Both the position numbers and the translations under genes were made by a program. Positions 39,203 to 61,287 of a DNA stretch of 64,000 bases are shown here, one piece after another; position 1 is the first letter of the stretch; each line of letters starts with the position of its first letter. Origin of the DNA: a bacterium (GTDB lineage Bacteria > Patescibacteriota > Microgenomatia > Daviesbacterales > UBA10151); the NCBI GenBank assembly GCA_021786105.1, contig JAJYNW010000026.1, forward strand, positions 3,481 through 67,480, given 5' to 3'. Below the pieces are notes generated by a model. The model searched no databases and was not told the DNA's origin. It was given only the letters and a program-made list of their open reading frames with translations.

Positions 39203-39284
39203 AAGATACTTTATGATTGTAGCTGTAAATGGTAGTTAACTTCGATAAGTTTCCTGTCAGCTTCTGTTAGTTACCGTAATTTCC

Positions 39285-39641: not shown

Positions 39642-39653
39642 GATAATAAGAAT

Positions 39654-41549: not shown

Positions 41550-41571
41550 ATTTGGATGGGAGGTGATAAAC

Positions 41572-41775
41572 ATGATTAAACAAGCGATTAAATATTGGTC
41601 AGAGCATGTTATTTTATCGAGCCTCTCTCACGCTCTGGGAGGATTTGGGGCAGCACTATTGTTGCAACATTATCTAGTTGGCAATGCCTTTTTACCAACG
41701 ATCGTTGGGTGGGTAGCTCTTGGTTTTACGGCAGTTACTCACTTCTTTGCTTATACGAGTAGCAACGGCCGTTAA
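41572..41775 (+). CDS. Small membrane protein
   Basis: ATG after GGGAGGTGATAAAC; two TM segments. Confidence 0.4.
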   Translation: MIKQAIKYWSEHVILSSLSHALGGFGAALLLQHYLVGNAFLPTIVGWVALGFTAVTHFFAYTSSNGR

Positions 41776-41827
41776 GTGAAAGATTTATAATTTTATTTAG
41801 ATCTGCTTACAAAGCAGGAAGAAGTTT

Positions 41828-42766: not shown

Positions 42767-42786
42767 CATTTTGGGGAACAAAAACT

Positions 42787-43065
42787 ATGTCAAATAAAAT
42801 ACAGGTCAAAAAGCGTGACGGATCACTTGAAGATTTTGATCAAACAAAAATAGCAAGGGTGGTAACTGTTGCTGGATTAACGCACGAACAAGGACAGAAG
42901 CTTGCGGCAGAAATAACTAATTGGGCACAAACCAATTCAAACTCATTTATAACTTCGTTCCAGATTAGAGATAAGGTGATCGAAGAATTACGCAAACTTA
43001 ACCCAAACGCTGCTAATCTTTATGCATGGTACGAAAAAACTAAGGGGGAAAAGTTACATGAGTGA
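42787..43065 (+). CDS. ATP-cone domain protein
   Basis: VKKRDGSLEDFDQTKI ATP-cone start pattern. Confidence 0.45.
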   Translation: MSNKIQVKKRDGSLEDFDQTKIARVVTVAGLTHEQGQKLAAEITNWAQTNSNSFITSFQIRDKVIEELRKLNPNAANLYAWYEKTKGEKLHE

Positions 43066-43339
43066 CTTACAGCTCAAAGACCCTAAAAAACCGTCTGGAC
43101 CTGTTATAGTGCGTGGCTATAAAGTCTATGTAGACAGGAACATCTGCATAGGAGCAGCTACCTGTATTGCCGTTGCCCCCAAAACCTTTGCTCTCGACGA
43201 TGAGGCAAAAGCAGTCATTTTAGATACTGCCGATCAAGAAACTATAGAAACGATAATTATGGCTGCGCAATCTTGCCCTGTAAAAGCAATAATCATCGAA
43301 GATGAGAAGGGACAAAGGGTTTTTCCCGAAATTAAGTAG
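43058..43339 (+). CDS. Ferredoxin (4Fe-4S)
   Basis: CIGAATCIAVAP...CP cluster-binding cysteines; ATG after TAAGGGGGAA. Confidence 0.6.
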   Translation: MSDLQLKDPKKPSGPVIVRGYKVYVDRNICIGAATCIAVAPKTFALDDEAKAVILDTADQETIETIIMAAQSCPVKAIIIEDEKGQRVFPEIK

Positions 43340-43479
43340 TATTACCGATCAATTGTTGGCAGTAAAACGTTTTCTGCTCTTTTGCTTGTACCTATAATCG
43401 GCAGTTAACTTCGATAAACTTTCTGTTGATATTCTATATTCTGCTTACACATAACGTCATTTTTTGATAAAATGAAATT

Positions 43480-44379
43480 ATGAGCGGATCGCATGAGCCA
43501 CCTACCAATTTAGACAATAAATTTAAGATTGGCCTTGTTTTAAATACTAGCTTTACTATTTTTGAATTCATCATGGGGTTTGTATCAGGAAGTTTAGCAC
43601 TAGTATCTGATGCTTCTCATAATTTGACTGATTCACTCTCATTGGTAATTGCCTTTTTGGCAAATAAAGTTTCCCGGCGTTCGGCAAACATTGACAAAAC
43701 CTACGGTTATGGCAGGGTAACTATTTTGGCAGCGCTTATCAATGCATTAATCCTTTTTGCTCTTGCCTTTTATATTTTTTATGAGGCGTACCAGCGGATT
43801 CTAAAACCTGAGCCGGTTGAGGGAGGGATTGTAATGATTGTAGCTTTTGTAGGAACTATCATCAATGGAGCAATTGCCTTTACTTTCTTCAAAAATAGGG
43901 ATGAGTTAAATACTAGAGCAGCTTTTTTAAGCATGGCCTTTGATACTTTGGCTTCAGTTGGCGCACTTCTGGCAGGGTTTATTATTGTTTTGACCGGCAA
44001 GACATTTGTTGATCCATTCATTAGTATTCTGATTGGTATCATGTTGGTCTTTAGCGCCTGGGGTGTAGTCAAAGATGGATTGCATGTCCTACTAGACGGA
44101 GTCCCTGAAGGTATTGATACTGGAAAAGTCAAACAGGCAATTTTAAATATCCCAAACGTTAAAGATCTTGATGATTTACATATTTGGGCAATTTCTTCAA
44201 CTTCTGCCGCCTTGAGTTGCCATTTGGTGATAAAAGAGTGTTCTCTTGCCGAAAGTCTGAGGATAAAGGAAGAGGTTAAAGAAATGTTATCTAGGCAGTT
44301 TCATATAGACCACGCAACGATTGAGATTGAACTAATAGAAGGCCCGCATCACAACGAAAGAACTGATGAGGGTATGTAG
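43480..44379 (+). CDS. Cation diffusion facilitator transporter (CzcD-like)
   Basis: SDASHNLTDSLS motif, 6 TM, C-terminal cytoplasmic domain with His. Confidence 0.85.
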   Translation: MSGSHEPPTNLDNKFKIGLVLNTSFTIFEFIMGFVSGSLALVSDASHNLTDSLSLVIAFLANKVSRRSANIDKTYGYGRVTILAALINALILFALAFYIFYEAYQRILKPEPVEGGIVMIVAFVGTIINGAIAFTFFKNRDELNTRAAFLSMAFDTLASVGALLAGFIIVLTGKTFVDPFISILIGIMLVFSAWGVVKDGLHVLLDGVPEGIDTGKVKQAILNIPNVKDLDDLHIWAISSTSAALSCHLVIKECSLAESLRIKEEVKEMLSRQFHIDHATIEIELIEGPHHNERTDEGM

Positions 44380-44381
44380 AT

Positions 44382-45164
44382 ATGAAAAATTTATTTTCTG
44401 GAAAATGGTTTATTGCTATAAAGGTGCTTCCATGGGTTGTAGGGATTATTCTCCTCAAGCTAGTACTTGATAAATTTGGTTTGGAGCCGTTATCTTTAAG
44501 CCCGCTTTTTAATAGTATCATTGCAGCTAATGTATTTTTGTTAGGATTTCTGCTTGCCGGAACACTGGCTGATTACAAAGAGAGCGAGCGTTTACCAGGA
44601 GAATTGGCAGCCAGTATTGAAACACTGTATGACGAATTTGAAATTACCTACAAGAATAAAAAATCACCTGTTGCTAAAAACGCCATCGCTCTTTTGGGTG
44701 ATTTTAATACCTTGCTTATCAACTGGTTTTATAAAAAAGAACGGACAAAAACGCTGATGGATAAAATATGCCGCTTTAATGATCTTTTTCTTGACCTTGA
44801 ACGCCTCACCCAGCCGAACTTTATTGCCAGACTCAAACAGGAGCAACACAACATTCGTCGCAATCTAATCCGCATACATACAATCAGAGAGACATCATTT
44901 GTTGCGGCTGGTTATGCAGTTGCCGAAATTACGACGGGGCTTCTTATTCTTGGATTTCTTTTTGCCAAAATTGAACCATTCTATGAATCACTTTTCTTTG
45001 TTGGGGCGACAACTTTTTTGATGATTTATATGATTGCGCTTATTAAAGATTTGGATAATCCGTTCGATCACTATACAGACGGAAAAGAGACAACCGTTGT
45101 TTCATTGAAACCCTTGAAAGATGTAGAAGAAAGAATAAAAGAGGAGTTAAAAAGGATAAAATAA
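44382..45164 (+). CDS. Hypothetical membrane protein
   Basis: 4 TM helices; tightly coupled to the CDF gene. Confidence 0.5.
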   Translation: MKNLFSGKWFIAIKVLPWVVGIILLKLVLDKFGLEPLSLSPLFNSIIAANVFLLGFLLAGTLADYKESERLPGELAASIETLYDEFEITYKNKKSPVAKNAIALLGDFNTLLINWFYKKERTKTLMDKICRFNDLFLDLERLTQPNFIARLKQEQHNIRRNLIRIHTIRETSFVAAGYAVAEITTGLLILGFLFAKIEPFYESLFFVGATTFLMIYMIALIKDLDNPFDHYTDGKETTVVSLKPLKDVEERIKEELKRIK

Positions 45165-45174
45165 AGGTGTTCTT

Positions 45175-45552
45175 ATGAAACCTGTAGTCCACGGTGAACT
45201 GGAAATACAAATCCTAAAAATCATCTGGGAGAAAAAAGACTGTTCTCCAAGAGAAGTGTTGGATGAAATTCAGAAAGAAAGGGATATAGCGCTCACCACA
45301 ATATCAACGGTCTTAGGGCGTCTTCATACCAAAAGAGTTTTAATTCGTAAAAAAACCAAGGGGCGAGTGCGTTACTCACCTAAACTTTCCAAAGAAGCCT
45401 ATGGTGCCAATACCGTAAAAGAATTTGTGGGTAGCCTGGTAGATTCTTTTGGAAACACAGCGATTACCTCTTTTGCTAAGGGAGTGAAAGGACTACCAGA
45501 TGACCAATTGAAAAAGTTAATTTATTTACTCAGAAAGTATGAAAATAAATAA
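45175..45552 (+). CDS. BlaI/MecI/CopY-family transcriptional repressor
   Basis: ELEIQILKIIWEK...TISTVLGRLHTKRVL winged helix of penicillinase-repressor family. Confidence 0.8.
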   Translation: MKPVVHGELEIQILKIIWEKKDCSPREVLDEIQKERDIALTTISTVLGRLHTKRVLIRKKTKGRVRYSPKLSKEAYGANTVKEFVGSLVDSFGNTAITSFAKGVKGLPDDQLKKLIYLLRKYENK

Positions 45553-46420
45553 AAACAGTATTGTCTTGAGTTCTTTATTTGTTGGGTTACTTTTCTATTT
45601 TTTGTTCCAAGCAACCCAAATCGCCTCTTTGATTTTAGGAAAGAATGTCTTGATATGTAACTCCTGTCTCCAAACAATCCCCACAATTCTTTTATATTCA
45701 GTCACATCTCTGTTAGGGTTATCCTTAGTTTGTTTTTTATTCGGTCTGGCAAAGACAGTTCATTTTAGGAAAAAACTCTACTTGATTAGCGCTCATTCTC
45801 GCTCTCTTAAGATGATAGAAAAGGAGCATTTACTGGACAGGAAAATAATCGTTTTTTCGCACAAAGACCCGTTAGCTTTTTGCTTGGGAATACTCAAGCC
45901 AAAGATTTATCTTTCTACCAAACTACTTAAAATAATGAACTCATCGGAGCTGGAGGCGGTAATTCTTCACGAAAAACAACATCTACAGGGAAATGACAAC
46001 TTGTTTCTAGTCCTGCCGACTCTACTCAAGACCACCTTCTTTTTCCTGCCGATATTTAGTGACATAGCCCAGAGATTTGAAGTTCAAAAGGAAATTAGAG
46101 CCGATCAAAATGCGATTAAAGAAATTGGTGACAAAAGTGTCCTTATTTCTGCTTTACAAAAAATTCTTTTTACATCTCAGCCCAACTTGGCTTTTGCCAA
46201 TTATTTTTCCAAATTTACTAGCCTTGAGGTAAGAATAAACAGTTTGTTGGGAGAAAGAACAAACCGCCGCCTCATCAGCCTAAATAATCTGGTTATCAGT
46301 TTTGGAATGCTACTTCTGATTGCGACCGTTATCCTTAATAGGGTCGAAATCCACTCCCAGCTTGCCAACTCAGCGCTTCTTTGTCTGGACAAAGGAAATT
46401 GCCAAGGCGCCTGCTACTAA
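45539..46420 (+). CDS. BlaR1/MecR1-like M56 peptidase-family membrane sensor with Cys-rich C-terminus
   Basis: HEKQHLQGND HExxH in M56 context, 4 TM, C-terminal CLDKGNCQGACY. Confidence 0.7.
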   Translation: MKINKNSIVLSSLFVGLLFYFLFQATQIASLILGKNVLICNSCLQTIPTILLYSVTSLLGLSLVCFLFGLAKTVHFRKKLYLISAHSRSLKMIEKEHLLDRKIIVFSHKDPLAFCLGILKPKIYLSTKLLKIMNSSELEAVILHEKQHLQGNDNLFLVLPTLLKTTFFFLPIFSDIAQRFEVQKEIRADQNAIKEIGDKSVLISALQKILFTSQPNLAFANYFSKFTSLEVRINSLLGERTNRRLISLNNLVISFGMLLLIATVILNRVEIHSQLANSALLCLDKGNCQGACY

Positions 46421-46509
46421 ATTCTGCCTACAAAAACCTATTGACTTTTTATCCACTAATTTTCTACAATATGTAGAAGACATTAAAATTTAGAGGTTTA
46501 ATTAATCTT

Positions 46510-47238
46510 ATGAAAAACACCAATAATCTCCTTGTCGCTTTACTTATAATAGTCATTGCATTCTCAGGCTATTTATTTTGGAAGGTTCAGAAACTTGAGC
46601 AAAAGGTCGGCTCTGACAACCAGGCAGCCCAAGTTAAAAGAGAACAGCAGGCAAAAGAAGCTCCGCCACAACCTACACAAAACCTTGACGCTGTACCACC
46701 AGTAACAGATAAAGACCATATCTTAGGAAGTAAAAATGCCGATGTGGTTTTAGTGGAGTATTCTGACTTTGAATGCCCCTTTTGCAAGCGCTTCCATCCC
46801 ACCATGCAACAGGTGGTAAAAGAATACGGCAGTAAAGTCGCCTGGGTATACCGCCAGTATCCTTTAGGCTTCCACGCCAATGCCCAAAAAGAGGCTGAGG
46901 CTTCTGAATGTGCCGCCGAACAAGGTGGTAATGAGGCTTTCTGGAAGTATTCCGACAAAATCATGGAGAGGACTACTTCAAACGGCACAGGTTTTGCTCT
47001 TGATAAGCTTGCGCCACTGGCTACTGAAATTGGACTAGATGCCAATAAATTTAAACAGTGTCTTGATAGTGGCAAGTATACCCAACATATTAAAGACGAT
47101 ATGGCTGGCGGTCAAAAAGCTGGCATTCAGGGAACTCCAGGCACGGTTATCATAGGCAAGAATGGTAAGAAAGAATTTATTGGCGGAGCGCTCCCCTTTG
47201 AACAAATTAAGCCATTGATAGATAAAGTACTGGAGTAA
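46510..47238 (+). CDS. DsbA-like thiol:disulfide oxidoreductase (signal-anchored)
   Basis: EYSDFECPFCKRFHP CxxC in thioredoxin fold. Confidence 0.75.
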   Translation: MKNTNNLLVALLIIVIAFSGYLFWKVQKLEQKVGSDNQAAQVKREQQAKEAPPQPTQNLDAVPPVTDKDHILGSKNADVVLVEYSDFECPFCKRFHPTMQQVVKEYGSKVAWVYRQYPLGFHANAQKEAEASECAAEQGGNEAFWKYSDKIMERTTSNGTGFALDKLAPLATEIGLDANKFKQCLDSGKYTQHIKDDMAGGQKAGIQGTPGTVIIGKNGKKEFIGGALPFEQIKPLIDKVLE

Positions 47239-47261
47239 GTTGAGACATATGACTAATAAAT

Positions 47262-48473
47262 ATGAACATAAACAAACTTCGTCAAGATTTCCCCTTTTTC
47301 CAAAAGACTCTTAACAGGAAACCCATAATTTACTTTGACAATGCCTGCCAGAGCCTTCGACCCCAATCTGTCATAGACGCTGTTGTTAATTACTACCAGG
47401 ATTATCCTGCTTGTGGCGGGAGGAGCATGCACCGTTTAGCTGCCAAAGTTACTCAGAAGTGCGATGAGGCAAGAAGTATTATTGCCAGGTTTGTCGGCGC
47501 TAAGCGTAAAGAGGAGATTATTTTTACCCGCAATACTACGGAAGGGATAAATCTTGTTGCTCATTCGCTAGGACTTCAAAAAGGCGATATTGTGGTTACC
47601 TCTGATAAGGAACATAATTCTAATCTCATCCCCTGGCAAATCTTAGCTAAAAAAATCGGCATTATTCACAAAATAATTCCTTCACGAGAAGAGAACATCT
47701 TTGGCCTTGAAGGATTTAAAAAAGTGATGAATGAAGAGGTAAAACTTGTATCCTTGGGCTTTACTTCCAACTTAGACGGAGTAACCATTCCTGCTTCCGA
47801 AATAATAAAAATTGCCCATCAGTTCGGTGTTTTGGTTCTTCTTGATGTTGCCCAAACCGCTCCACATCATAAGATTGATGTCACTGCACTTGATGTTGAC
47901 TTCCTCGCTTTTTCTGGACATAAAATGCTTGGACCTTCTGGAACTGGTGTTCTTTATGGCAAATATCATCTTTTGGAGAAACTTGAGCCATTTTTGGTAG
48001 GAGGAGATACGGTGGTGTCTTCTACCTATGATTCTCATAAACTACTCCCTCCTCCTGAAAAATTTGAGGCAGGGTTACAAGATTACGCTGGGATTATCGG
48101 GTTGGGAGAGGCGGTTAGATATTTGGAAAAGGTCGGGTTTGAGAATATTACCGAGCAAGAACACACGCTCAATAAGTTTATTAGTAATGAAATTGTAAAT
48201 ATTCCTCATCTTCATATTATTGGACCCGAAGACCCAAGTAAACGAGGTGGTATTGTCTCCTTTTATATCGAGGGAGTAGACTCTCATCAGGTTGCCCTAA
48301 TGCTTGATGAGTCTGCTAATATTATGGTTCGTTCTGGTCAGCACTGCGTTCATTCCTGGTTTGCTAGTAAGAAAATTGCTGGTTCTGTCCGTGCGTCGCT
48401 GTATTTTTATAACACCCAAGAGGAGGCGGAAATCTTTGTTAATCAGTTGAAGAAAGTTATACGGGTATTGTAG
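47262..48473 (+). CDS. Cysteine desulfurase (SufS/class V aminotransferase-like)
   Basis: FSGHKMLGPSGTGVLYG PLP-lysine motif and C-terminal catalytic Cys region (SGQHCV). Confidence 0.85.
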   Translation: MNINKLRQDFPFFQKTLNRKPIIYFDNACQSLRPQSVIDAVVNYYQDYPACGGRSMHRLAAKVTQKCDEARSIIARFVGAKRKEEIIFTRNTTEGINLVAHSLGLQKGDIVVTSDKEHNSNLIPWQILAKKIGIIHKIIPSREENIFGLEGFKKVMNEEVKLVSLGFTSNLDGVTIPASEIIKIAHQFGVLVLLDVAQTAPHHKIDVTALDVDFLAFSGHKMLGPSGTGVLYGKYHLLEKLEPFLVGGDTVVSSTYDSHKLLPPPEKFEAGLQDYAGIIGLGEAVRYLEKVGFENITEQEHTLNKFISNEIVNIPHLHIIGPEDPSKRGGIVSFYIEGVDSHQVALMLDESANIMVRSGQHCVHSWFASKKIAGSVRASLYFYNTQEEAEIFVNQLKKVIRVL

Positions 48474-48476
48474 CTT

Positions 48477-49409
48477 ATGTTTTGTTTATTAGCTCTTATC
48501 GTTTTATCAATTTTAGGCATATTTAGTGCTACCCATAGACAGCTTGCCAAAGAAGCCTTCGACTGTGTATTTCGACGGATTACTTTCCGCCCTTGTACGA
48601 CGGGATTTAAAGAGAAGATGAAGGCAAAACTTACAGGAAAGATTCTCAATCGTTCACCTTTTGTAGCCCGTTTTCTGAACAGACACTTTGAACTTGTCTC
48701 CTGGGTATTTTTTATCCTCATGGTTGCAAGTACCTTTTGGACAGTTAAGGGTGCTTATAACTTTTATCTTTATGGAAGCTGTAATGGTTTAAATGAAACT
48801 GGTTTTTGTGCTTTTGATCCATCGGGTGAGAATAATAAGGTGTCACAGATTGCCACATCGTGTAGCTTAGAAAAACCCTCTGAAAAAGATTTGACATTAA
48901 ACGGTGTTGATCTTAGCATTTTCCCTATTAGGAATCCTGATGCCAAAGATAAAATTATTTTTATTGGCTGTTACGGCTGTGACTATACCCGCAAGGCTTA
49001 CCCTTTGATACAGAAACTTATTGCTAACAATGAAGTTAGTTTCATCTTTGCCCATTTCCCTGTAAAGGACGAGACTAACTTCCTCTCTGAATATGGCTAT
49101 TGTGCCTATAAGCAGGATCAGGAGAGATTCTGGCAGTTCAATGATGCTTTGTTTGCCTCGGATAAGCAAAATTTAGGAAATAAAAATTATGTGGACGGTT
49201 TAGCTTCAAAGATCGGTTATAACTTGACTACGATCGATAGATGTATAGATAGCCAGGAAACTAAAGAGGCCGTGGAAAGACAGTTTCAGGAGATAAGCAA
49301 AACCCATGTTTATGGAACTCCAACCGTGTTTATAAATGGTAAAGTGCTGGTCGGACCGAAGCCCTACCGAGTTTATGAAAGAGCCTTAAAGGGTTGGCGG
49401 TTTTGGTGA
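48477..49409 (+). CDS. Membrane-anchored thioredoxin-fold (DsbA-like) protein
   Basis: N-terminal TM pair with Cys residues; FIGCYGCDY CxxC thioredoxin-like domain. Confidence 0.55.
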   Translation: MFCLLALIVLSILGIFSATHRQLAKEAFDCVFRRITFRPCTTGFKEKMKAKLTGKILNRSPFVARFLNRHFELVSWVFFILMVASTFWTVKGAYNFYLYGSCNGLNETGFCAFDPSGENNKVSQIATSCSLEKPSEKDLTLNGVDLSIFPIRNPDAKDKIIFIGCYGCDYTRKAYPLIQKLIANNEVSFIFAHFPVKDETNFLSEYGYCAYKQDQERFWQFNDALFASDKQNLGNKNYVDGLASKIGYNLTTIDRCIDSQETKEAVERQFQEISKTHVYGTPTVFINGKVLVGPKPYRVYERALKGWRFW

Positions 49410-49521
49410 TTTTAGCAGATGACAATTTTTGACATGATTTTTAGATTTTAGAGAACCGGTAAATATAAAAACTACCATAAACCATAGATTCCTCAATGTT
49501 TTTTAGGTAAAATGTAAACAT

Positions 49522-51429
49522 ATGGAGATAGAAAATGGATTTACAAAAGTAACTAATCTTTTTAAGAACTGTAAAGTTAGTTTAACTGTTCTTTCAGGAA
49601 TAGCTTTAGTTTTTGGTCTTTTCTTAAGTTGGTTTAAAATTGCGCCTCAGCTCTCGCCCTTTTTGTATCTACTATCTTTGGCAAGCGGAGGATTTTATGT
49701 ATATAGAGAGGCGTTTGAAGGTTTCAAAAACAAAGCTTTCTTCAATATTAATCTTTTAGTAACAATAGCATCAATTGGAGCTGTTTTTATTAACCAGTGG
49801 GCAGAAGCAGCCTCAGTTGTTTTCTTCTTTTCACTGGCTGAAATGTTTGAGGAATTCGGTATTAAGCGCTCACAGCAAGCCATAACCAATCTTATTAAGG
49901 AATCACCCCAAAAGGCGAATAAAAAAGAGGTTAATAATATCGTCTCTATCTCTATCGAGGAAGTAAATATTGGTGATATCGTGGTGGTTAAACCAGGAGA
50001 CAAAATCCCATTAGACGGAAAAGTTGTTAAGGGAAATTCTGCAGTTGATGAAGCGGCAATTACTGGGGAATCACTTCCAAAAGAAAAGCTTGTAGGTGAC
50101 TTAGTTTTTGCAGGAACCATGAATATGTCCGGCTACTTGGAGATTAAAATTACAAAAAGGTCGAAAGACAGCGTGTTATCAAAGGTGATTGCAACAATTG
50201 AGGAAGCGCAGGAGAAAAAAGCCCCATCGCAGGAGTTTATTGATAAATTTGCAGCTTATTACACACCTACAGTTGTCATTGGTGCTGTTCTTTTAACCAT
50301 AGTTCCGGTTTTGTTGGGAGGAACATTTACACAGTGGCTGTACCGCTCCTTAACCCTTCTTGTTATTGCCTGTCCTTGCGCGCTTGTTATTTCAACCCCT
50401 GTTTCTGTTGCCTCGGCTATTGGTAGAGCTTCGCAAAAGGGATCACTCATAAAGGGCGGAAAATTTTTAGAAGCAATAGGAAAAGTGAAGGCTATCGCCT
50501 TTGATAAAACAAGAACATTGACAGAAGGTAAACCTATCGTTTCTGACATTCTTACATTTAATGGCTTTTCTAAAGAAGAAGTCCTCGCAGATGCTTGCGG
50601 TATTAGTAAATTTGACACACATCCATTATCTTTTGCCATTAAAGTTAAGGCGGAAGAAGAAAGCATAAACCCTCATATTATGGAGAAGTTTAAGAATACC
50701 CCCGGAAAAGGCTCTAAGGCTAACTGTACTGTATGTGATGATTTAACACACTGTGTTGGTAATCTAAAACTCTTAAACAGTGAAGAAGTAAATACCAAAG
50801 AAGTAGAGCATGTAGTTGAAAATTTGGCCAAGGAAGGCAAGACCACGATTTTAGTAAGTGAGGGTAAAGTAATGATGGGTGTACTAGGCATAACTGACTC
50901 TATCCGTCCAGAAGCCATTGAGACGATTGGACAACTAAAACGGCTTGGTATTTCAAACTTTTCGATTATAAGCGGTGATAATGCTTATGCTGTTGATTAT
51001 GTTGCACAAAAGCTAGGAGTTAATAATACCTTTGCTCAACTTTTGCCTGGGCAGAAATTAGAAACAATCGAAAAACTTAAACAGGAGTATGGAACTGTAT
51101 CGATGGTAGGTGATGGCATCAACGATTCTCCATCCCTTGCCGCCTCTGATGTTGGAATTGCTCTTGGCTCTGCGGGGTCGGACGTTGCCATTGAAACCGC
51201 TGATATTGCCCTTATGGGTGATGATTTAAGAAGGATTCCCTATCTTATTAAGCTGGGAAGACAAACAACTCAAGTAATCAAACAAAATATCTATGCTTCC
51301 CTTGGGATTAAGGCCATCTTTTTAACATTGGGAGTATTTGGGTTAACTCATCTAGGATGGGCAATAGCCGCAGATTCAGGGGTAGCACTCTTGGTAACGC
51401 TAAATGGATTAAGGCTTTTTAGAGCTTAA
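49522..51429 (+). CDS. P1B-type heavy-metal ATPase, CPC motif, no HMA domain; atypical DKTRT phosphorylation motif
   Basis: ACPCALVISTP, MVGDGINDSPSL, but AFDKTRTLTEG (codon aga where gga is expected). Confidence 0.8.
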   Translation: MEIENGFTKVTNLFKNCKVSLTVLSGIALVFGLFLSWFKIAPQLSPFLYLLSLASGGFYVYREAFEGFKNKAFFNINLLVTIASIGAVFINQWAEAASVVFFFSLAEMFEEFGIKRSQQAITNLIKESPQKANKKEVNNIVSISIEEVNIGDIVVVKPGDKIPLDGKVVKGNSAVDEAAITGESLPKEKLVGDLVFAGTMNMSGYLEIKITKRSKDSVLSKVIATIEEAQEKKAPSQEFIDKFAAYYTPTVVIGAVLLTIVPVLLGGTFTQWLYRSLTLLVIACPCALVISTPVSVASAIGRASQKGSLIKGGKFLEAIGKVKAIAFDKTRTLTEGKPIVSDILTFNGFSKEEVLADACGISKFDTHPLSFAIKVKAEEESINPHIMEKFKNTPGKGSKANCTVCDDLTHCVGNLKLLNSEEVNTKEVEHVVENLAKEGKTTILVSEGKVMMGVLGITDSIRPEAIETIGQLKRLGISNFSIISGDNAYAVDYVAQKLGVNNTFAQLLPGQKLETIEKLKQEYGTVSMVGDGINDSPSLAASDVGIALGSAGSDVAIETADIALMGDDLRRIPYLIKLGRQTTQVIKQNIYASLGIKAIFLTLGVFGLTHLGWAIAADSGVALLVTLNGLRLFRA

Positions 51430-51437
51430 TATGATCT

Positions 51438-51677
51438 TTACCTGCTAATCGTTGGTAATAAAACGTTTTCTGCTGGCTTTACGGCTTTTGTAGGCCTCTT
51501 TATAATCTTACCGGCAGAAACTAGATTATCTTTAGGACTTTTCTTTATTTCTTCGGCTTGCGCTTCTGTTACCTCAATAAAACGGCTTTTATTTTCGTCA
51601 GCTATCACAGCGTCAAATTCTGCTTTGACAACAAATTGAATTTCGCCGTTTTCATCAAATTGTATAAAGTGTTTCAT
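51438..51677 (-). CDS. Hypothetical small acidic protein
   Basis: 79-aa ORF ending 4 nt before the next gene. Confidence 0.4.
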   Translation of the reverse strand: MKHFIQFDENGEIQFVVKAEFDAVIADENKSRFIEVTEAQAEEIKKSPKDNLVSAGKIIKRPTKAVKPAENVLLPTISR

Positions 51678-53010: not shown

Positions 53011-53805
53011 TTACAATGCCGTACCCACTGGATACACACTTTCAACTAAAGCTCCGGCCGGAACCAAAACCTGCTCCCACGAAAGATTAACTTGGTCGCA
53101 GTCCGGATCGGTATTATTAAGAACGCCGTTATAAGTAACCCACACATTATCAAACCAAAGATCGCCTGAAACATCGTTTAACTCCAAGGAAAGCTCCCAA
53201 TTAGCAGGAACACCCAAAGGAAGCGGAACTGATAAACTTTGCGTTGCCCATCCACTTGCAAGAGGAATTGAAATAACATTTTCATCTGTAATATTTTGCC
53301 CGCCATAATACCTGTTTGTTCGAAGGATTAGTTTTGCGTAAGGATTGCCGCCAGCAGAAGTTAAGTTTGATTTTCTGGAAAGTTGAAAGGTTAAAGGAAA
53401 AGTTGGTTTTTGATTTTTCGTTTGCCGGATTATAAGCGCAGTTGCACTCCCAGCTAAATTGATATGTCCTACCAAATACTGATGAAATAAAGATGGTGTT
53501 GCAAAACCACCAAGCAGATTTTTAATTCGATATGCTTGATCCTGAACAAAAAGGTTATAACCATTCATTCCCGGGACATTTCCGGCGTCAAGCCAGGACT
53601 GTCTCTGTGGAGCGCTAAATTCCGACCAGCTTTTGGAAACTGTAAATAAATAAGAAATCTCACGAAGACTGTAATAGCGGGAACGAGTCATAAAACGGGG
53701 ATTCTTGCCAATAGAACAGAAGAACGAAAAATCGTACATCTTCAAGGTCTTGTTATAATAAATCTCAAGACCGGCTGGTATAGTAATTCCCATTATTCTT
53801 GGCAT
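53011..53805 (-). CDS. Hypothetical protein ('MPR' family; N-terminus paralogous to 33964..34305)
   Basis: MPRIMG... and GMNGYNLFVQDQAY shared with the paralog. Confidence 0.5.
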   Translation of the reverse strand: MPRIMGITIPAGLEIYYNKTLKMYDFSFFCSIGKNPRFMTRSRYYSLREISYLFTVSKSWSEFSAPQRQSWLDAGNVPGMNGYNLFVQDQAYRIKNLLGGFATPSLFHQYLVGHINLAGSATALIIRQTKNQKPTFPLTFQLSRKSNLTSAGGNPYAKLILRTNRYYGGQNITDENVISIPLASGWATQSLSVPLPLGVPANWELSLELNDVSGDLWFDNVWVTYNGVLNNTDPDCDQVNLSWEQVLVPAGALVESVYPVGTAL

Positions 53806-53815
53806 AGTATTTCCT

Positions 53816-54004
53816 TTACCCTACTGGCGGCGTACTTTTGACGCCAAAGTAAAAAGCCACAACTGCCAGAAGTACAGAGCTGACAACTCCATCGTGTCCT
53901 AATCCGATTAAAACAAACGAGCCGATAACCACAATCATTGCCAAAATATCAGTTGGTTTCATTCTATCCAGAAAATTATAAAATTCTTTCATATTCTGTT
54001 CCAT
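53816..54004 (-). CDS. Small membrane protein (holin-like size, 1–2 TM)
   Basis: 62 aa, ILAMIVVIGSFVLIGL / VLLAVVAFYFGV helices; overlaps the PLD gene by 16 nt. Confidence 0.4.
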   Translation of the reverse strand: MEQNMKEFYNFLDRMKPTDILAMIVVIGSFVLIGLGHDGVVSSVLLAVVAFYFGVKSTPPVG

Positions 54005-54498
54005 AAAGTTTCGAAGTATCTAGTGAACTCTACTGCTACTTCTCTTGAAACTATTTTTATCGAAGCCTCATCATTAACTGTTACTGCACGCCTTGACATG
54101 TTATGCGATCCTAAAACTGTAATTTCTTGATCTATAATCCAAAGTTTGGCATGAGTAATAGGGGATGATGGCCCAAACTTTGCTAAAGCTCCGGCTTCTT
54201 GTAAATTTAAGATAGTGTTTTTGTTGACCGAATTTAGTGGATGTCTTGGATGTTCTTTGTTTAACAGAACTCGAACAGCAACTTTGCGCCTTGCGGCTTG
54301 CAAGACTTCATAGGAAAGTTGTTGAATACTTGAATCGTGGTCGTGATGATACCATTTCCACTCAAACTGAATAATATCTATACTCGCCTTGGCTTGCCGA
54401 ACACAATCTGTGATCGTTCCAATGAAAGCTCTCCCCGGCAAAGGGGTAACTATAGCATTGATATTCTCAACCATTATTTTTGTTTGTAAGTCTTGCAT
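53989..54498 (-). CDS. Phospholipase D-family (single HKD) Nuc-like nuclease
   Basis: HAKLWIIDQEITVLGSHNMS = HxK(x4)D(x6)GSxN motif in a 169-aa protein. Confidence 0.75.
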   Translation of the reverse strand: MQDLQTKIMVENINAIVTPLPGRAFIGTITDCVRQAKASIDIIQFEWKWYHHDHDSSIQQLSYEVLQAARRKVAVRVLLNKEHPRHPLNSVNKNTILNLQEAGALAKFGPSSPITHAKLWIIDQEITVLGSHNMSRRAVTVNDEASIKIVSREVAVEFTRYFETLWNRI

Positions 54499-54504
54499 AC
54501 TTAA

Positions 54505-56140
54505 ATTTTTACGCTTCCAAACCTAATCGCAACTCCCAAGCGATGTACTACTAACGAAAGTTTGTCTGCGACACCATCGCTCGTGCCTCGCCTTATCGCT
54601 CGCCCTGCTTCGCAGGTCTCGCTTTGGCTTCGGCACTCGCTACCTTATGGGAAACTCCAACCTTTGTACTTTTCCCAAACCTTGGGTCGCTATCGCGCAA
54701 CCCAAACCGCCAACCTTAAACCCAATTGCGATTCGAAACTCCATCGCCCCCGACAATGCGCGCCGCCCGCCTACGGCGAACATATTTATAAGAAAAACTT
54801 GTAAGGAAAGGCGGCGCTAGGCGGGGGCTTGGGATTACCAAACATAACTCGCACCATTGCCTCTCTCGCCAAGCAAAGCTTGGCTCGTTCGGCTCCACAA
54901 CTGCCCTTTGCTCGCAGTGCCTGGCCTCGCTTCGGGCAGCAGAAAAGGGTCGCTCGGTTCCCCCCGCCGCTTCTTCCCCCTAAAACCCCCTTCTTAGGCA
55001 ACCCCCCTTAATCAAATGTATTGCCATATTAGGGGGAAGAACGCTCTTGGGGGGATTCTCGCTTAAAAAAGCAGGCAATAATCTATAGTTGCTTTTTTTA
55101 CCCTTTCTCTGACGCTACGCAGCGGGAACCCTGTACATCCCGCTGCTTCGCTTATTCGGCGACTCGTCGGAGCCTCAATTTCTCCAACTCGTCGCCTCCA
55201 ATTCCCATCGTTTACTGTTCATGTTGCTCTTGCAGGCGCGCTCGCTCCATCTCTTGCGGTCTTCGCTCGCTTGCCGTACCTGCTTTTTTATCCCTTTCTG
55301 AACGCCGCTTTTTAAAAAGAGTTATCTTTTTGTATAAATCAAAACTTCTCCCGAAGTTTTTCAAGCGGTATTAAGCGGCGTTGAAGTGGAATCCGCCAAT
55401 AGCGGATATGGTGCGAGTAAAACCTATCATCGCCATATTCGGCGGCTGTGACCCCCGCTTATCGCTCACTCGCTTTTATTATATTTTTTAAGGTGCTCGT
55501 TCGCTGGGCGAGAGGGCGCCCTAGGGGGCGCCTCGCCCATGTCATTGCTTTCTAATAACGCTGTACAGTCTCTACCTCGCCGCCCGAAGTAGCGTTTTCT
55601 GAACCCAATCTCATCGGCGGGACGGCTACCTTTTAGGGTGGTTTAGTATCGCCTGCCTACGCGGGGGTGTGCCTTTTCCCCTCTCCTCCGCGTCGCTTCG
55701 CTCCTTGTCGGTGTCCCCCCTTCTGCGCAGGGGCGCTCCCTCTGGTCGCTTACCTGCTTGCGGGGGGAGCCCCCCTCGCCGTCGTATGGCTTGTGGAAAC
55801 TCAACCGCTGTACCCGTGCGCCGAACCGCAATCTAAGCCTGTGGGCGCTCGCGCTTATCTTTTAATACTAAGGTCAACTTCGCGCTCGCTTGGGTTATCG
55901 GGGGCGCGGCGCCAAACCTCATATAAGTCGTGAAGTTTTGTGTTGGCGCGCCCCCTCTTTTTGGCTCGTGCGCTTCGCTCGGGGGGCAGGCAACAGCCGC
56001 CGAAAAGAAAAACAAAAGCGTCTGTTTTTCCCTGCTTTCGAGCTAGCGCTTAGCTTTCGTTAGGTTTTCAAAGTGCTTGTTCCCATTGGCTTCCGATGTT
56101 GCGCGGGACAAACTTTTGTCTGTTATCAAGGGCATACTGC
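54505..56140. ncRNA. Candidate large structured non-coding RNA region (GC-rich, ORF-poor, hairpin/tetraloop-dense); class unknown, strand uncertain (tetraloops favour +)
   Basis: Abrupt rise in GC relative to the AT-rich flanks; only short overlapping ORFs in six frames; nested GC stems (GCCCCCG/CGGGGGC enclosing GCGCCGCC/GGCGGCGC), UUCG and UACG tetraloop hairpins, GGGGGG-AG-CCCCCC. Confidence 0.35.
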
Positions 56141-56499
56141 CCGCGCTGAAAATTCTTATCGTCGCCGATTATAAAAATACTAATCATAAATAATCATCAA
56201 ATAAATCAATCATTTCTATTTTTTATTTAACCTAACATTTGGTTTAACGTTAAGTTTTTTTATTTTCTATCCCGGAGGGTAGATTTTTTGCAAACGGTCC
56301 CCCTAACCCCATTAACGCCGAAATGAGGCTAGGAGACCATCTGCGAGGAAAGTTTTATCTTTCCTATCCCGTCTGGGCTAGTTCCTCGCTGAACGGCTGG
56401 TGAGACTTAAAGAGTTTTTTTAGGACCCCCGGAGGGAATTGCACCACTCTCTTTTGGTCGCTCCCACCATGCAAACCCCAAGCGACCTGCCAGAAGTGT

Positions 56500-56928
56500 C
56501 TATGTTTTCTTCTTGGCGCTCTTATCAATTTCTTCCATGTCCTCGTCTGAAATTTCAGGATTACCTTTATTCCATACCGGATTATCGCCGTCTATTTTTT
56601 GCACTTCATAGTGGACACTTTCGCCCTGCTTAACTTTAGTAATTTTGATGACTTCTCCCTCTTTTATTTCAGAAAAAAATAAAGCGATCCGAGATGCAGA
56701 GGATGTAAATAGTTTTTTCTCTCCGTCAACTTCGATAGAGTAGCGGGGATTTTCTTTGGTTGGGTCCCGAAAACTTGGCACCATTTTATAACCGCAATAG
56801 ATACCCACCGCGGATTCTCCGGGCTTTAACATTAAATAAGGACTATTCGCTTTGGCGTATTCTTCAAGCTCTCCCATAGTTTTATTAATTTTGGTGCCCG
56901 CCAGCTCCTGCCCTGAACCAGCGGGCAT
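56500..56928 (-). CDS. Hypothetical protein
   Basis: 142-aa ORF ending 5 nt before the M23 gene. Confidence 0.5.
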   Translation of the reverse strand: MPAGSGQELAGTKINKTMGELEEYAKANSPYLMLKPGESAVGIYCGYKMVPSFRDPTKENPRYSIEVDGEKKLFTSSASRIALFFSEIKEGEVIKITKVKQGESVHYEVQKIDGDNPVWNKGNPEISDEDMEEIDKSAKKKT

Positions 56929-58524: not shown

Positions 58525-58942
58525 GGAAATTTTACAGCAATGTAATCTATCCTCTGCCCCAATAAATTTAGATAAAATTATAGAGCGTGAAGGCATAAAC
58601 CTTGATGACTGGCGTTTTGCCGGAAGAATCAAAGAGGCTTACCTTGGCGATAGCATTGGCATAAAAAATTCAGTTAATCCAAAGAGGAGGCGCGAGTTAA
58701 TAGCTCATGCACTAGGACATCATTTTCTTCATACGGGAAACCATTTATATTTTGAAGAACACGACCAGTTTGTTACTTTCAAACAAGAATACGAAGCTCA
58801 ATGCTTCGCGGCAGAACTTCTTATACCTACCTTAATACTCAAGCCGCTAAAAACTTGGCCAGTCCACGAATTAGCCGAGCATTTTTCCGTAACCGAAGAA
58901 TTAGTAAAATTTCGCTTAAAAGTTTTAGAGGGGGAATCATAA
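58499..58942 (+). CDS. ImmA/IrrE-family metallopeptidase-like protein with HAxxH variant motif
   Basis: ELIAHALGHHFLH where HExxH is expected (gca for gaa); paired with the XRE gene. Confidence 0.55.
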   Translation: MRKALKRAREILQQCNLSSAPINLDKIIEREGINLDDWRFAGRIKEAYLGDSIGIKNSVNPKRRRELIAHALGHHFLHTGNHLYFEEHDQFVTFKQEYEAQCFAAELLIPTLILKPLKTWPVHELAEHFSVTEELVKFRLKVLEGES

Positions 58943-59571
58943 TGGCTATCGCAATGCTTATTTTTATGGATGAATCCGGTGACACTGGATTTAAGTTTGG
59001 TAAAACTTCCAGTAAGTTTTTCGTTTTAGTTATCGTGATTTTTGATAGTTTGAGTGTTGCCGAAGAAGCAAACGAAGCCGTAAAGAAAGTCAGAAAAGAG
59101 TTAAAACTGCCAGAGAATTTTGAGTTTAAGTTTAGCACCGGTACATCAGATAAGGTGAAACGTGCTTTCTTACAAAAATTATCTAAATACAATTTTCGTT
59201 ATAGAACAGTGATTGTTGATAAAACCATCCTTGCCAAGCGTGAACCTTTACACCCCAAAGACAGTTTATACATGCTGGTTGCAGATCATCTCTTTTTAAG
59301 AGCGGAGGAGCGAATGAAAAACGCTTCTATTTTTATAGATCGTATTTCTAAATCCTTTGTGGATGATTTTGATGGTTATTTAAGAAAACGACTAAACACT
59401 AATATTGAAAAGATTATCGGGAGAGTAAAACATCAGGACTCAAGAAGTAATAATTTACTCCAACTTGCCGATATGGTTTGCGGGGCAATTTATCGAAAAT
59501 ACAATCGTAGTGATGATAAGTTCTACAAGATTATCAAAAAAAGAGAGGAAGATTTATGGAAACCTTATTGA
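58942..59571 (+). CDS. DUF3800 domain protein
   Basis: IFMDESGDTGF N-terminal DUF3800 signature; TAATG start/stop overlap with upstream gene. Confidence 0.6.
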   Translation: MAIAMLIFMDESGDTGFKFGKTSSKFFVLVIVIFDSLSVAEEANEAVKKVRKELKLPENFEFKFSTGTSDKVKRAFLQKLSKYNFRYRTVIVDKTILAKREPLHPKDSLYMLVADHLFLRAEERMKNASIFIDRISKSFVDDFDGYLRKRLNTNIEKIIGRVKHQDSRSNNLLQLADMVCGAIYRKYNRSDDKFYKIIKKREEDLWKPY

Positions 59572-59716: not shown

Positions 59717-61234
59717 ATGAGAGCTTTAATCTATGTTAGGGTTTCAACAGACGAACAGGCCGATAAAGGCTTATCGTTACCTGCCCAGCAGGAAGCCTGT
59801 TTAGAATACATAAAAATTAAGCATTGGACTATTGACCCTAAAAAAGACATCTTTGTTGACGCCGGAGAATCAGCACGAACCGCTAATCGCCCAGCCCTCC
59901 AAGAAATGCTATCCCGCTGTAAGAAAGATAAAGAAGTCAATGTAGTTTTGGTCCATAAACTCGACAGGTTAGCCCGCAATGTAGCCGACCACGCGGCTAT
60001 AAGGGGAATCCTGCGAAAATATGATATACAGCTTTGTTCTGTTGTTGAGCCTGTTGATGACAGCCCCACGGGAGCGCTTCTTGAAAATATTATGGCTTCC
60101 GTTGCAGAGTTCTATTCTGCTAATCTAGGACAGGAGGTAAAAAAAGGAATGAAGCAGGTACTTAAACAGGGGAGGTATCCGGGACGTGCGCCTGTCGGTT
60201 ATCTTAATAAGGATATATTTGAGTCGGACGGCACTGTTACCAAAACAATAATTATGGATGCGATCAAAGCCCCTGCAATCCAGCAGGCTTTCAGAGTATT
60301 TGCCACTAACCAATGGACTCAAGAACAGTTATGCGATGAGCTTAATAAAAACGGCTTTAAGACGTTTTTTAATAATGGAGTAAGACCATGGAAATTGCAC
60401 GGTATCCTCACAAACAAATTTTATATGGGTATTGTTGTGTGGGGCGGAGAAGAAGTGCAGGGAACCCATGAACCCTTGGTGTCTCCCGAACTATTTTACC
60501 GAGTGCAAGACGTCTTGAGAATAAGGACTAAGAATACAACTCGCCAAAGAGCGGCAATGTTTTCTCTAAGGAGAATTCTTTATTGCCCCAAGTGTGGCAA
60601 TAGATATGTTGCAGAAACCCACAAAGGCGGGCGGTTCAGCTATTATCGCTGTAGCTCCGCTTCCCGCTATGGTATGCACTGTGACCAAAAAATGGCGGCG
60701 GAAAAAGATTTATTAGCACAGATTCTTGAAATCTTCAAACAAGTGGAGCTCCCCGAAGAACTTGTTACCCTTGCAAAAATGAACGTTAAAAAACTAGAGG
60801 AAGATCGAGTAAGCGGAGTAACAAATGAACGCAGGCACTTGCGGGAAAGAATAAGTAAACTTGAAGAAAAACAGCAGAAACTTCTTGATGACCGGCTGGA
60901 AGGTCTTATTGATAAAGAACTATGCTACCAAAAGCTAGCCCTAATCAAAAGAGATATTGACCTTGCCAACGTAAGGCTTAATGAAATCCAACAGGAGAAC
61001 GACGCAAGCTTTGTCGCTCTTAATAAAACAATTGATGTTTTAGGAAATATCTACGAGATATACAAAATGTCCGACCCGCCAAGGCGTACTCTTTATAACC
61101 AATCTTTCTTCGAAAAGATCATGGTTGACCAAAAACGAATTACCGAGATAAAATGGCGTGCACCGTTTAGCTCGTTATATCGGGATAAACGTGATTCTGG
61201 TTTACCCCCCTATGGAGCGGGAGAGGGGATTTGA
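59717..61234 (+). CDS. Large serine recombinase (site-specific integrase)
   Basis: ALIYVRVSTDEQ catalytic Ser, recombinase domain, CPKCGN...YYRC zinc ribbon, C-terminal coiled coil; 3' end overlaps tRNA-Gly. Confidence 0.85.
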   Translation: MRALIYVRVSTDEQADKGLSLPAQQEACLEYIKIKHWTIDPKKDIFVDAGESARTANRPALQEMLSRCKKDKEVNVVLVHKLDRLARNVADHAAIRGILRKYDIQLCSVVEPVDDSPTGALLENIMASVAEFYSANLGQEVKKGMKQVLKQGRYPGRAPVGYLNKDIFESDGTVTKTIIMDAIKAPAIQQAFRVFATNQWTQEQLCDELNKNGFKTFFNNGVRPWKLHGILTNKFYMGIVVWGGEEVQGTHEPLVSPELFYRVQDVLRIRTKNTTRQRAAMFSLRRILYCPKCGNRYVAETHKGGRFSYYRCSSASRYGMHCDQKMAAEKDLLAQILEIFKQVELPEELVTLAKMNVKKLEEDRVSGVTNERRHLRERISKLEEKQQKLLDDRLEGLIDKELCYQKLALIKRDIDLANVRLNEIQQENDASFVALNKTIDVLGNIYEIYKMSDPPRRTLYNQSFFEKIMVDQKRITEIKWRAPFSSLYRDKRDSGLPPYGAGEGI

Positions 61235-61287
61235 ACCCCCGACATCCTCGTTGGCAACGAGGCACTCTACCACTGAGTTACTCCCGC
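61213..61287 (-). tRNA. tRNA-Gly (anticodon GCC)
   Basis: Hand-folded: GCGGGAG acceptor, anticodon loop UUGCCAA, GGTTCAAATCC T-arm, CCA encoded. Confidence 0.75.

Follow-up and report, generated by a model that had tools for sequence, protein, structure and literature searches.

To our knowledge, only a handful of bacterial and phage RNAs longer than 500 nucleotides (nt) are known (GOLLD, ROOL and OLE), and each has become a landmark of structural biology. GOLLD is ∼800 nt long and combines a universally conserved part with a variable part. ROOL, of ∼580–660 nt, comes from Firmicutes and rumen samples, and OLE is a structured RNA of ∼600 nt, encoded on the chromosomes of extremophilic Firmicutes, that forms a ribonucleoprotein with dedicated partners encoded nearby (OapA/B/C). 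GOLLD has been described as a very large multi-domain non-coding RNA (ncRNA) of prophages and phages that is often found beside tRNA genes and whose function is unknown (PMC12286853), and ROOL as a large, highly structured, ornate RNA of phages, prophages and plasmids with no known protein partner or function (PMC12286853; PMC5737381). Here we analyse a non-coding region of ∼2 kb in a 64,000-nt stretch of contig JAJYNW010000026.1 (assembly GCA_021786105.1; the whole stretch is referred to as the window), in which an initial annotation, made from the letters of the DNA, had suspected a giant structured ncRNA inside a mobile element. The region is like GOLLD and ROOL in kind but not in family. 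We consider it probable that the region encodes, on the minus strand of a ∼15.5-kb integrative element of a host from the Patescibacteria (candidate phyla radiation, CPR), a very large structured ncRNA that has not been described before, and the conservation of the region, its compensatory changes, the lack of any Rfam match and the context of the element all support the original suspicion.

The initial annotation could not place the region in a known family, and model searches led to the same result for GOLLD, ROOL, HEARO, OLE, introns, rRNA, RNase P and tmRNA. A cmscan of the window with Rfam 15 gave no match at gathering score. At E≤10, positions 54300–56700 yielded nothing meaningful, only chance matches at the level of microRNAs and small RNAs, and six homologous loci gave no match at E≤1. 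The Rfam models for group I introns, RNase P, tmRNA, 6S RNA, rRNA, HEARO/omega RNA and raiA did not match, and ARAGORN found no tRNA or tmRNA inside the region. A group II intron was considered and rejected, as there is no Rfam match at E≤10, no open reading frame (ORF) of more than 88 amino acids and no reverse transcriptase domain among the proteins of the element. The DNA of the region has no match in INPHARED phages or PLSDB plasmids, the protein encoded by the adjacent PLD-family nuclease gene and a conserved 20-mer are both absent from IMG/VR, and full-text literature searches returned no description of such an RNA.

The window region shares with GOLLD (RF01998) its location in an integrase-bearing element beside a tRNA-Gly gene and its organization as a conserved core with variable domains. 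The GOLLD trait of residence in a phage or prophage, often near a tRNA, has its counterpart in a serine integrase gene that abuts the tRNA-Gly gene, in an element that may be viral. However, the GOLLD model does not match at E≤10, the window region is about twice as long (1.65 kb versus ∼800 nt), and it occurs in Patescibacteria with fixed protein neighbours, namely an OB-fold-like protein and the PLD nuclease. The ROOL model (RF03087) also fails to match and, unlike ROOL, regions of this family fill 12–17% of a 15–16-kb replicon. OLE (RF01071) is similar in being a large structured RNA with partner proteins encoded nearby, but its model does not match and none of OapA/B/C is encoded beside the window region. 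Thus, of the resemblance to GOLLD and ROOL noted at the outset, the kind of RNA and the mobile-element setting hold, whereas membership of either family was tested and failed. In descriptive terms the region fits the large ornate ncRNAs, being longer than 500 nt and non-coding, with covarying helices and conserved unpaired nucleotides. At least 11 structured RNA motifs, unrelated to one another, have been reported to lie near genes for DUF3800 proteins (PMC5737381), and the same element carries a DUF3800 gene (58801–59571) 2.3 kb from the region. However, none of the Rfam motifs of this group (DUF3800-I to -XI, drum and skipping-rope) is present in the window, those motifs are small, and a circular relative described below (L005/L006) has the structured region without a DUF3800 gene.

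The region occupies exactly the intergenic gap between the PLD gene and a 142-amino-acid ORF, both on the minus strand (Table 1). Its guanine-plus-cytosine (GC) content, in steps of 200 nt, is 0.51–0.64 from ∼54500 to 56100 and 0.53 at 56300–56499, compared with 0.33–0.46 for the flanking genes, and a 1-kb profile is concordant, with surroundings at ∼40%. Together with a longest ORF of 88 amino acids, this profile agrees with the GC-rich, ORF-free island in an AT-rich background that had been described at the outset. All three stop codons are present in each of the six frames, and therefore no alternative genetic code opens a reading frame. A Pfam search with the ten longest ORF fragments gave no significant match (the single one listed, with E=0.015, falls short of the curated cutoff), and substitutions among homologues of the region lack three-base periodicity (110, 103 and 124 variable sites in the three phases). 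Protein coding, including coding through recoded stops or frameshifts, was ruled out by the ORF sizes, the stops, the Pfam results and the lack of periodicity. Tandem and CRISPR-like repeats are absent, the sole exception being a short AT-rich repeat within the spacer of the region.

Relatives were collected from contigs encoding the exact flanking proteins, from PLD homologues and then from PLD-related loci in metagenomes and GTDB genomes, the PLD protein serving as the anchor for all related loci (given here as L numbers). Homologous, collinear regions are present in at least 20 independent assemblies from four sources (JGI, ENA, Logan and metagenome-assembled genomes (MAGs) at NCBI), full or partial copies align across the whole 2 kb, and, among named hosts, MAGs of Patescibacteria and Candidatus Daviesbacteria are the nearest. 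The structured modules are 94–97% identical in nucleotide sequence to those of L001, L008, L010 and L015, while the genes for the M23 peptidase, the 142-amino-acid protein, the PLD nuclease and the 264- and 391-amino-acid proteins are mostly 80–92% identical (97.8% for PLD with L001). The corresponding values are 94–95% for the modules and 80–88% for these five genes in the comparison with L008, and 82–86% and 72–83% in the comparisons with L019 and L020. The region has therefore changed less than the genes beside it, and on these identities it is under stronger purifying selection than they are.

The conservation reaches well beyond this close family. Iterated nhmmer searches recovered the central part (∼55210–55780) in L026, L044/47/52, L049, L051, L079 and L091, where PLD is 45–51% identical, and a second domain in L067 and L069. 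A covariation model of a 191-position core (R1; window 55491–55690) finds the core in L026, L051, L047 and L091, and also in L032–34, L074/75 and L048 with E values of 1e-5 to 1e-6. A core of ∼200 nt persists in relatives whose PLD protein is just 41–51% identical. In L005/L006, the most distant type, the corresponding position holds 2.65 kb of gene-free sequence with a folding z-score of −9.1; it is undetected by the models, and it shares with the window the motifs CGCCGUAGGCGGG, CCGAGCGAAGCG and CUGCGAAGCAG and the CGGGAUAG boxes. The non-coding GC-rich regions of relatives range from ∼1.3 to 2.6 kb, and lineages differ by insertions reminiscent of expansion segments, such that a conserved core is combined with lineage-specific inserted domains. 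In L069 (5100–5950) and L067 (130–650) the 3′ part is T-rich and unlike the window type, with repeated modules (CUGAGCCCGCCAACGGCGGGCGAAGCCCG twice and several GGUGACCCCUUUUUCAAACGGU-like units). L090, L091 and L092 are contigs of 13.9–14.5 kb in Omnitrophota and Bacteroidales MAGs and one of 44.6 kb in a Gammaproteobacteria MAG; closer relatives reside in Patescibacteria/Daviesbacteria MAGs, which suggests mis-binned episomes rather than a broad host range. A blastn clustering that linked 50 of 63 upstream regions was possibly inflated by coding sequence and was not used.

The region folds far more stably than expected by chance. Compared with dinucleotide shuffles, a 961-nt piece (54840–55800) has a z-score of −9.3 when folded as the minus strand and of −7.2 as the plus strand, in keeping with the hairpin density noted at the outset. 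The example hairpins quoted at that time were located in the sequence, but the largest of them (54744–54828) is private to the window copy and absent from L001, and hence is not a family-wide feature. For the close family, a consensus was calculated with RNAalifold on a 15-sequence alignment (A3) and scored by base-pair counting, with partners slid by 1–3 columns and 500 column shuffles as controls. It comprises 555 pairs in 88 helices, with 96.4% of cells paired compared with 41–44% when partners are slid. Both sides have changed in 55 pairs (150 cells), compared with 10–16 pairs (14–28 cells) in the slid controls, and none of the 500 shuffles reaches this number. For the deep family, 15 of the 28 pairs of model R1 covary in a 22-sequence alignment, compared with 0–4 when slid and 2.2 in shuffles, with the qualification that this alignment leans toward the structure of the model because it was fitted to R1. 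Compensatory changes are therefore abundant in close and distant relatives alike. Conserved long-range helices span ∼200–590 nt, and three of them (helices 27, 51 and 62) are backed by compensatory changes. Hence, the region is a conserved and selected multi-domain single-stranded fold whose long-range helices are held by compensatory substitutions.

The functional strand is the minus strand, which is also the direction of the neighbouring genes. Unpaired bases on this strand are 41–43% A and 10–12% C, although the coding strand of the element is T-rich overall rather than A-rich, and an A-rich, C-poor unpaired composition is typical of structured RNAs. The short recurring motifs pointed out in the initial annotation were confirmed and are specific to this strand. 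In six diverse members taken together there are 13 copies of CGAGCGA (1.0 expected) and 16 of GCGAAGC (1.9 expected), with none of either on the opposite strand, and AAGCGAG is distributed 13:0 between the strands. Part of this purine-motif bias is due to helices with tandem A.G/G.A mismatches (GCGAGCG paired with CGAGCGC). The consensus energy is −965 kcal/mol for the minus strand and −908 kcal/mol for the plus strand, with 55 and 43 covarying pairs, respectively. A count of 527 G.U versus 78 A.C cells was discarded as an artefact of having predicted the structure on that same strand.

The region is composite, consisting of a ∼225-nt 5′ unit, a variable AT-rich spacer and a ∼1.65-kb main unit (Table 1). 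In the 5′ unit, helices 2–9 are 92–100% paired and helix 3 has two covarying pairs in A3. A 23-bp helix at 56290–56344 (helix 8) includes 6–7 G.U pairs, and all five of its variable pairs toggle between Watson–Crick and G.U pairing, which favours RNA. The CGGGATAG boxes of this unit are also found in L006. A small C-rich/G-rich hairpin precedes each CGGGAUAG box, the second box borders directly on the AT-rich spacer, and the same arrangement of boxes and hairpins is seen in L006 (4680–4845). Possibly the 5′ unit is a small structured RNA in its own right, or an element with a regulatory or origin function. The sequence TATAAT-CGGCGACGAUAA next to the spacer is kept in 10 of 12 full copies; it is not called by the promoter scan and is a candidate either for the promoter of the main unit or for a DNA-unwinding segment. 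The spacer of the distant relative L006 contains a 35-codon ORF (4906–5013) for a strongly hydrophobic peptide, of which no counterpart was seen on reading the shorter spacer of the window, where no scan below 50 amino acids was made.

Within the main unit, the deeply conserved core contains an invariant hairpin, GGCGCCC-CCUA-GGGCGCC (within 55505–55539), and a helix in which ACCCCCGC (55661–55668) pairs with GCGGGGGU (55451–55458). Helix 59 occurs in four different sequence variants, every one of them paired, and four of its nine pairs covary. The variants of helix 57 (GGCGAC, GGCGCC and GGUGCC) each have a matching partner, and in L069 this helix is rewritten as GGCGGGGG...CCCCCGCC with the GAAAUUG loop retained. 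The invariant GUAC in the loop of helix 59 and a GCGC loop whose flanks covary from AGCGCU to UGCGCA might act as palindromic kissing loops in a homo-oligomer of the kind reported for GOLLD and ROOL, but intramolecular pairing explains these patterns equally well, and the helix-59 hairpin is missing in L069. At one pair of helix 51 the window has A-U, L001 has G.U and other members have G-C, and L069 keeps the helix with several compensatory changes. Helix 43 (93% of cells paired, one covarying terminal pair) is also present in the single-sequence minimum free energy fold. Further long-range helices join 55774–55790 to 55432–55450 and 55292–55300 to 54940–54949, and the long-range helices other than helix 51 close domains of 350–590 nt. 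In the position of the copy-specific hairpin at 54744–54828, other members have a different, covariation-rich domain of ∼350 nt (helices 69–80). The 3′ unit (helices 84–88, 94–100% paired) is 81–96% identical in L001, L008, L010, L015 and L020 and 71–72% identical in L088/L089, with a partial match in L019. The sequence UAUGG...CCUAAG around the GGCAA/UUGCC helix at 54969–55044 resembles the 11-nt GAAA-tetraloop receptor, but the motif is not conserved as such because several members have CCUAGU or CCGAGU.

Table 1. Coordinates in the window of the structured region, its parts and the adjoining genes. Helix numbers and alignment columns are those of alignment A3.
Feature	Position	Strand	Details
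Whole non-coding GC-rich structured region	54499..56499	−	No ORF >88 amino acids; stops in all frames; GC content; homologues in at least 20 assemblies
5′ unit, ∼225 nt	56266..56491	−	3 or 4 hairpins; two CGGGAUAG boxes; A3 columns 13–249
AT-rich, poorly conserved spacer	∼56174..56265	−	GC 0.33; variable in alignments A1 and A3
Conserved TATAAT hexamer	56168–56173	−	Just 3′ of the spacer
Main unit, ∼1.65 kb	∼54510..56160	−	Multi-domain fold with nested long-range helices; RNAalifold consensus and z-score
Deeply conserved core domain	55491..55690	−	Covariation model R1 scores 154 bits here
Hairpin GCAGCGGGA-loop-UCCCGCUGC (helix 59)	55119..55146	−	Invariant GUAC in loop; A3 columns 1413–1440
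Hairpin GGCGAC...GUCGCC (helix 57)	55158..55196	−	Conserved loop GAAAUUG; 3 covarying pairs
Long hairpin UUCUUCCCCCUAA...UUAGGGGGAAGAA (helices 63–64)	54969..55044	−	Inverted repeat I5; 3 consecutive covarying pairs (UCU/AGA to CUC/GAG)
Domain closed by long-range helix 51	55064..55290	−	55277–55290 pairs with 55064–55077; inverted repeat I6
Span closed by long-range helix 43	54845..55420	−	55409–55420 pairs with 54845–54856; 12 bp, ∼550 nt apart; inverted repeat I2
Copy-specific GC-rich hairpin GCCCCCG...CGGGGGC	54744..54828	−	Variable segment of main unit; absent from L001
Conserved 3′ unit	54510..54640	−	Rich in GCGAG/AGCGA motifs; ends ∼30 nt before PLD start codon
PLD-family nuclease, downstream	53989..54498	−	PF13091 at 1e-21; single HKD; no signal peptide
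OB-fold-like protein, 125–142 amino acids, upstream	56500..56928	−	Acidic C-terminal tail; predicted β-barrel
264-amino-acid protein	53011–53805	−	Length of exactly 264 amino acids in nearly all of 45 clusters of homologues, at identities as low as 43%

The element in the window is bounded on the right by the serine integrase gene (59717–61234), which abuts tRNA-Gly (61213–61287). Next to the integrase are the DUF3800 gene (plus strand; PF12686 at 4e-18, and a PADLOC candidate, PDC-M04A, at 8e-13), genes for an ImmA-like peptidase with helix-turn-helix regulators that form a CI/Cro-type switch, and a gene for an M23/LysM peptidase. In L001 the same element is contiguous, at ∼15.5 kb, in a different genomic neighbourhood. 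The mobile-element setting proposed in the initial annotation is thus confirmed by the integrase at the tRNA gene, the M23/LysM peptidase, the PLD nuclease and the presence of the element elsewhere in L001. No repeat of at least 11 nt, as expected of att sites, is common to the regions around the two presumed ends of the element. The window copy has an extra 12.2-kb block (39203–51450) that is absent from the otherwise collinear L001 element and encodes metal-resistance and redox functions (a P-type ATPase, DsbA/thioredoxin proteins, a BlaR/BlaI-like pair, a cation efflux protein and an aminotransferase). The block resembles inserted cargo, or else reflects a rearrangement inside the element.

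A form without an integrase was assembled from L005 and L006 (ERZ27247713 k141_794078 and SRR9651403_110688), which come from independent samples and overlap with 100% identity to give a circle of 15,929 bp. All of its genes are on one strand and its GC skew is uniformly positive, without inflection. No recognisable integrase, Rep, polymerase, terminase, packaging or capsid gene was found in the circle, and the 2.65-kb structured region, ∼17% of its length, is its only large non-coding region. It also carries genes for a Hjc-like resolvase, an HNH endonuclease and β-helix proteins. Proteins common across the family are mostly adhesin- or enzyme-like and include β-helix proteins, a FimH-like lectin, glycosyl- and methyltransferases and the 264-amino-acid protein.

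The two proteins encoded on either side of the region are the OB-fold-like protein and the PLD nuclease, the latter cytoplasmic and without a signal peptide. The gene for the OB-fold-like protein lies upstream of the region in every relative examined and is directly adjacent in L001, L006, L007 and L008; its homologues in L006 and L047 are 31–36% identical and in the same position. An AlphaFold2 (AF2) model has the topology β1-β2-β3-α-β4-β5, with a predicted local distance difference test (pLDDT) score of 64 overall and 70–82 in the core, and its best Foldseek matches are OB-fold RNA- or single-stranded DNA (ssDNA)-binding proteins (a uS12-type ribosomal protein, PrgE, RPA and LEF-3) at weak E values of ∼0.02. 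The order of OB-fold-like gene, structured region and PLD gene is kept in every relative examined, with extra ORFs in some (in L006 a gene for 216 amino acids precedes PLD, and L047 has two ORFs on the opposite strand), and these two genes are the only nucleic-acid-related genes common to all versions. A link between the region and the PLD nuclease, raised initially as a possibility, gains some support from this fixed order. The AF2 model of the 264-amino-acid protein (pLDDT 78) consists of a disordered N-terminus, three helices and a jelly-roll sandwich. A capsid function was considered and rejected, the best structural matches being CBM16 and carbohydrate-binding modules of tail-fibre and tailspike proteins rather than capsids. 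This protein has no match in phages, and the 577- and 391-amino-acid proteins have no sequence match in the PDB.

Several observations weigh against an RNA gene. Symmetric wobble tests (30–33 versus 22–25 cells in helices predicted on both strands) reveal no significant asymmetry. Scans of the minus strand called neither a sigma-70 promoter nor an intrinsic terminator and define no transcript ends, which are therefore guesses. GCGAAGC forms a DNA mini-hairpin of exceptional stability that occurs at phage origins, and in the window it stands mostly on 2-bp stems. Only three of ten tetraloops are of the GNRA or UNCG type, and some relatives have very long near-perfect helices that are unusual for bacterial RNAs. 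The OB-fold assignment is weak, given the low-confidence model and the Foldseek values, and the functional proposals made below come from gene content alone. The structure might therefore act in ssDNA, as a giant origin or packaging region, with the OB-fold-like protein as an ssDNA-binding protein and the PLD nuclease, a member of a family with a covalent phospho-histidine intermediate, as a nicking initiator. The 15,929-bp circle would fit such a scheme with its single large non-coding region, unidirectional genes and uniform skew and with no Rep, polymerase or terminase recognised, as would the position of the region between an acidic-tailed OB-fold-like protein and a nuclease, the one-sided enrichment of GCGAAGC, the wobble tests without an RNA-specific signal and the AT-rich stretch with repeated CGGGATAG boxes. 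Rolling-circle single-strand origins and the intergenic region of Ff phages likewise have strand- and orientation-specific hairpins in a single intergenic region, with all genes running one way and genes for an OB-fold DNA-binding protein and a nicking enzyme adjoining. However, these known origins and intergenic regions are 150–500 nt of local hairpins and need an HUH-type Rep, whereas the present family has 1.3–2.6 kb, ∼80 helices, nested long-range helices closing multi-helix domains and a 200-nt core kept across deep divergence, and neither Pfam nor PHROGs reveals an HUH Rep domain in the proteins of the element. Conservation of more than 1 kb above the level of the proteins and an A-rich unpaired composition also speak against ssDNA, helix 8 with ∼30% G.T pairs would be weak as DNA, and the copy in the window is integrated and double-stranded, in a prophage-like element that has a CI/Cro-type switch. 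Setting the strand-specific and RNA-like evidence against the open points on wobble pairs, promoters and GCGAAGC, we consider RNA the fairly likely identity of the molecule, as judged from sequence, and an ssDNA structure unlikely, though a serious competitor.

Other explanations concern RNA of a different organization, or no functional element at all. A long cis-acting leader of the downstream operon (PLD and later genes), working by antitermination or by structure-dependent translation or stability, would account for the shared orientation, for the fact that no minus-strand intrinsic terminator was called in the interval from the region to the PLD start codon and for the proximity of the 3′ unit to that codon. 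It is nonetheless quite improbable, as no known leader comes near a length of 1.3–2.6 kb with a deeply conserved core of several domains, and L006 has a 216-amino-acid gene between the region and PLD. L091 and L051 also have promoter-like hexamers (TTGACA...TAAAAT and TATAAT) in this interval, and L047 a GC hairpin and U-run before PLD, features that were seen by eye and are unconfirmed by scans. We give just as little credence to a cluster of independent small elements (small RNAs, terminator-like or repetitive extragenic palindrome-like hairpins, or protein-binding sites) in place of a single molecule. The region is visibly modular (5′ unit, spacer, core, variable region and 3′ unit), peripheral domains come and go between lineages and many helices are local hairpins, but the long-range helices (∼200–590 nt) are conserved, also in distant relatives, with compensatory changes in helices 27, 51 and 62 and one covarying pair in helix 43, the order of the modules is fixed across the family and there are no internal terminators on the minus strand. 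The chance that the region is the remnant of a decayed or foreign GC-rich gene, or a chimera of the assembly, is vanishingly small. An abrupt GC shift can mark horizontally acquired DNA, and a chimeric or contaminant junction had been raised initially, but an artefact or decaying gene is excluded because the region recurs collinearly in so many independent assemblies from four sources and is more conserved than its neighbouring genes; it also has stops in all frames, no codon periodicity and no significant Pfam signal, and it shows compensatory changes.

We therefore return to a large structured ncRNA as the favoured explanation. The RNA would serve as a folded scaffold to which the upstream-encoded OB-fold-like protein probably binds, and RNA, OB-fold-like protein and PLD nuclease would together form a three-part module needed to propagate the element. 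From gene content, a role as a primer or origin RNA in replication or maintenance of the replicon is a tentative proposal. It is favoured because the module is the only nucleic-acid machinery common to the integrase-bearing and the integrase-less circular relatives, none of which has a recognisable replication protein, and because the region is the only large non-coding region of the integrase-less circle. ColE1 RNA II, an origin transcript of ∼550 nt with a handful of stem-loops, offers a parallel from general knowledge, as it too serves a replicon without its own initiator and the only large non-coding region of the circle would be the source of a structured, G-rich candidate transcript; unidirectional replication would fit the uniform strand skew. 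Unlike ColE1, no antisense element resembling RNA I was found and the Rfam RNAI model does not match. By analogy with GOLLD and ROOL, a self-assembling particle that acts in a lytic or transfer cycle is about as conceivable as the replication role. More doubtful still is the wider proposal that the RNA is no accessory but the core machine of a minimal 15–16-kb replicon, carrying out replication priming, origin function or packaging together with the OB-fold-like protein and the PLD nuclease.

If the region does encode an RNA, its ∼1.65-kb main unit would be about double the length of even the largest ornate RNAs known from phages, and a covariation-supported fold of this length would roughly double the size range established by GOLLD, ROOL and OLE. 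At 1.3–2.6 kb, the family would surpass every structured RNA so far known, outside the ribosome, from bacteria and their mobile elements, and under the wider proposal an RNA would perform a job that other mobile elements assign to proteins. The two fixed protein neighbours provide an experimental handle that GOLLD and ROOL do not offer. The hosts belong to the Patescibacteria (CPR), a huge and barely studied bacterial group, and the region takes up 12–17% of a 15–16-kb replicon without recognisable replication genes. Its role could thus show how such elements propagate, and may reveal an RNA-based or ssDNA-based solution to replication or packaging.

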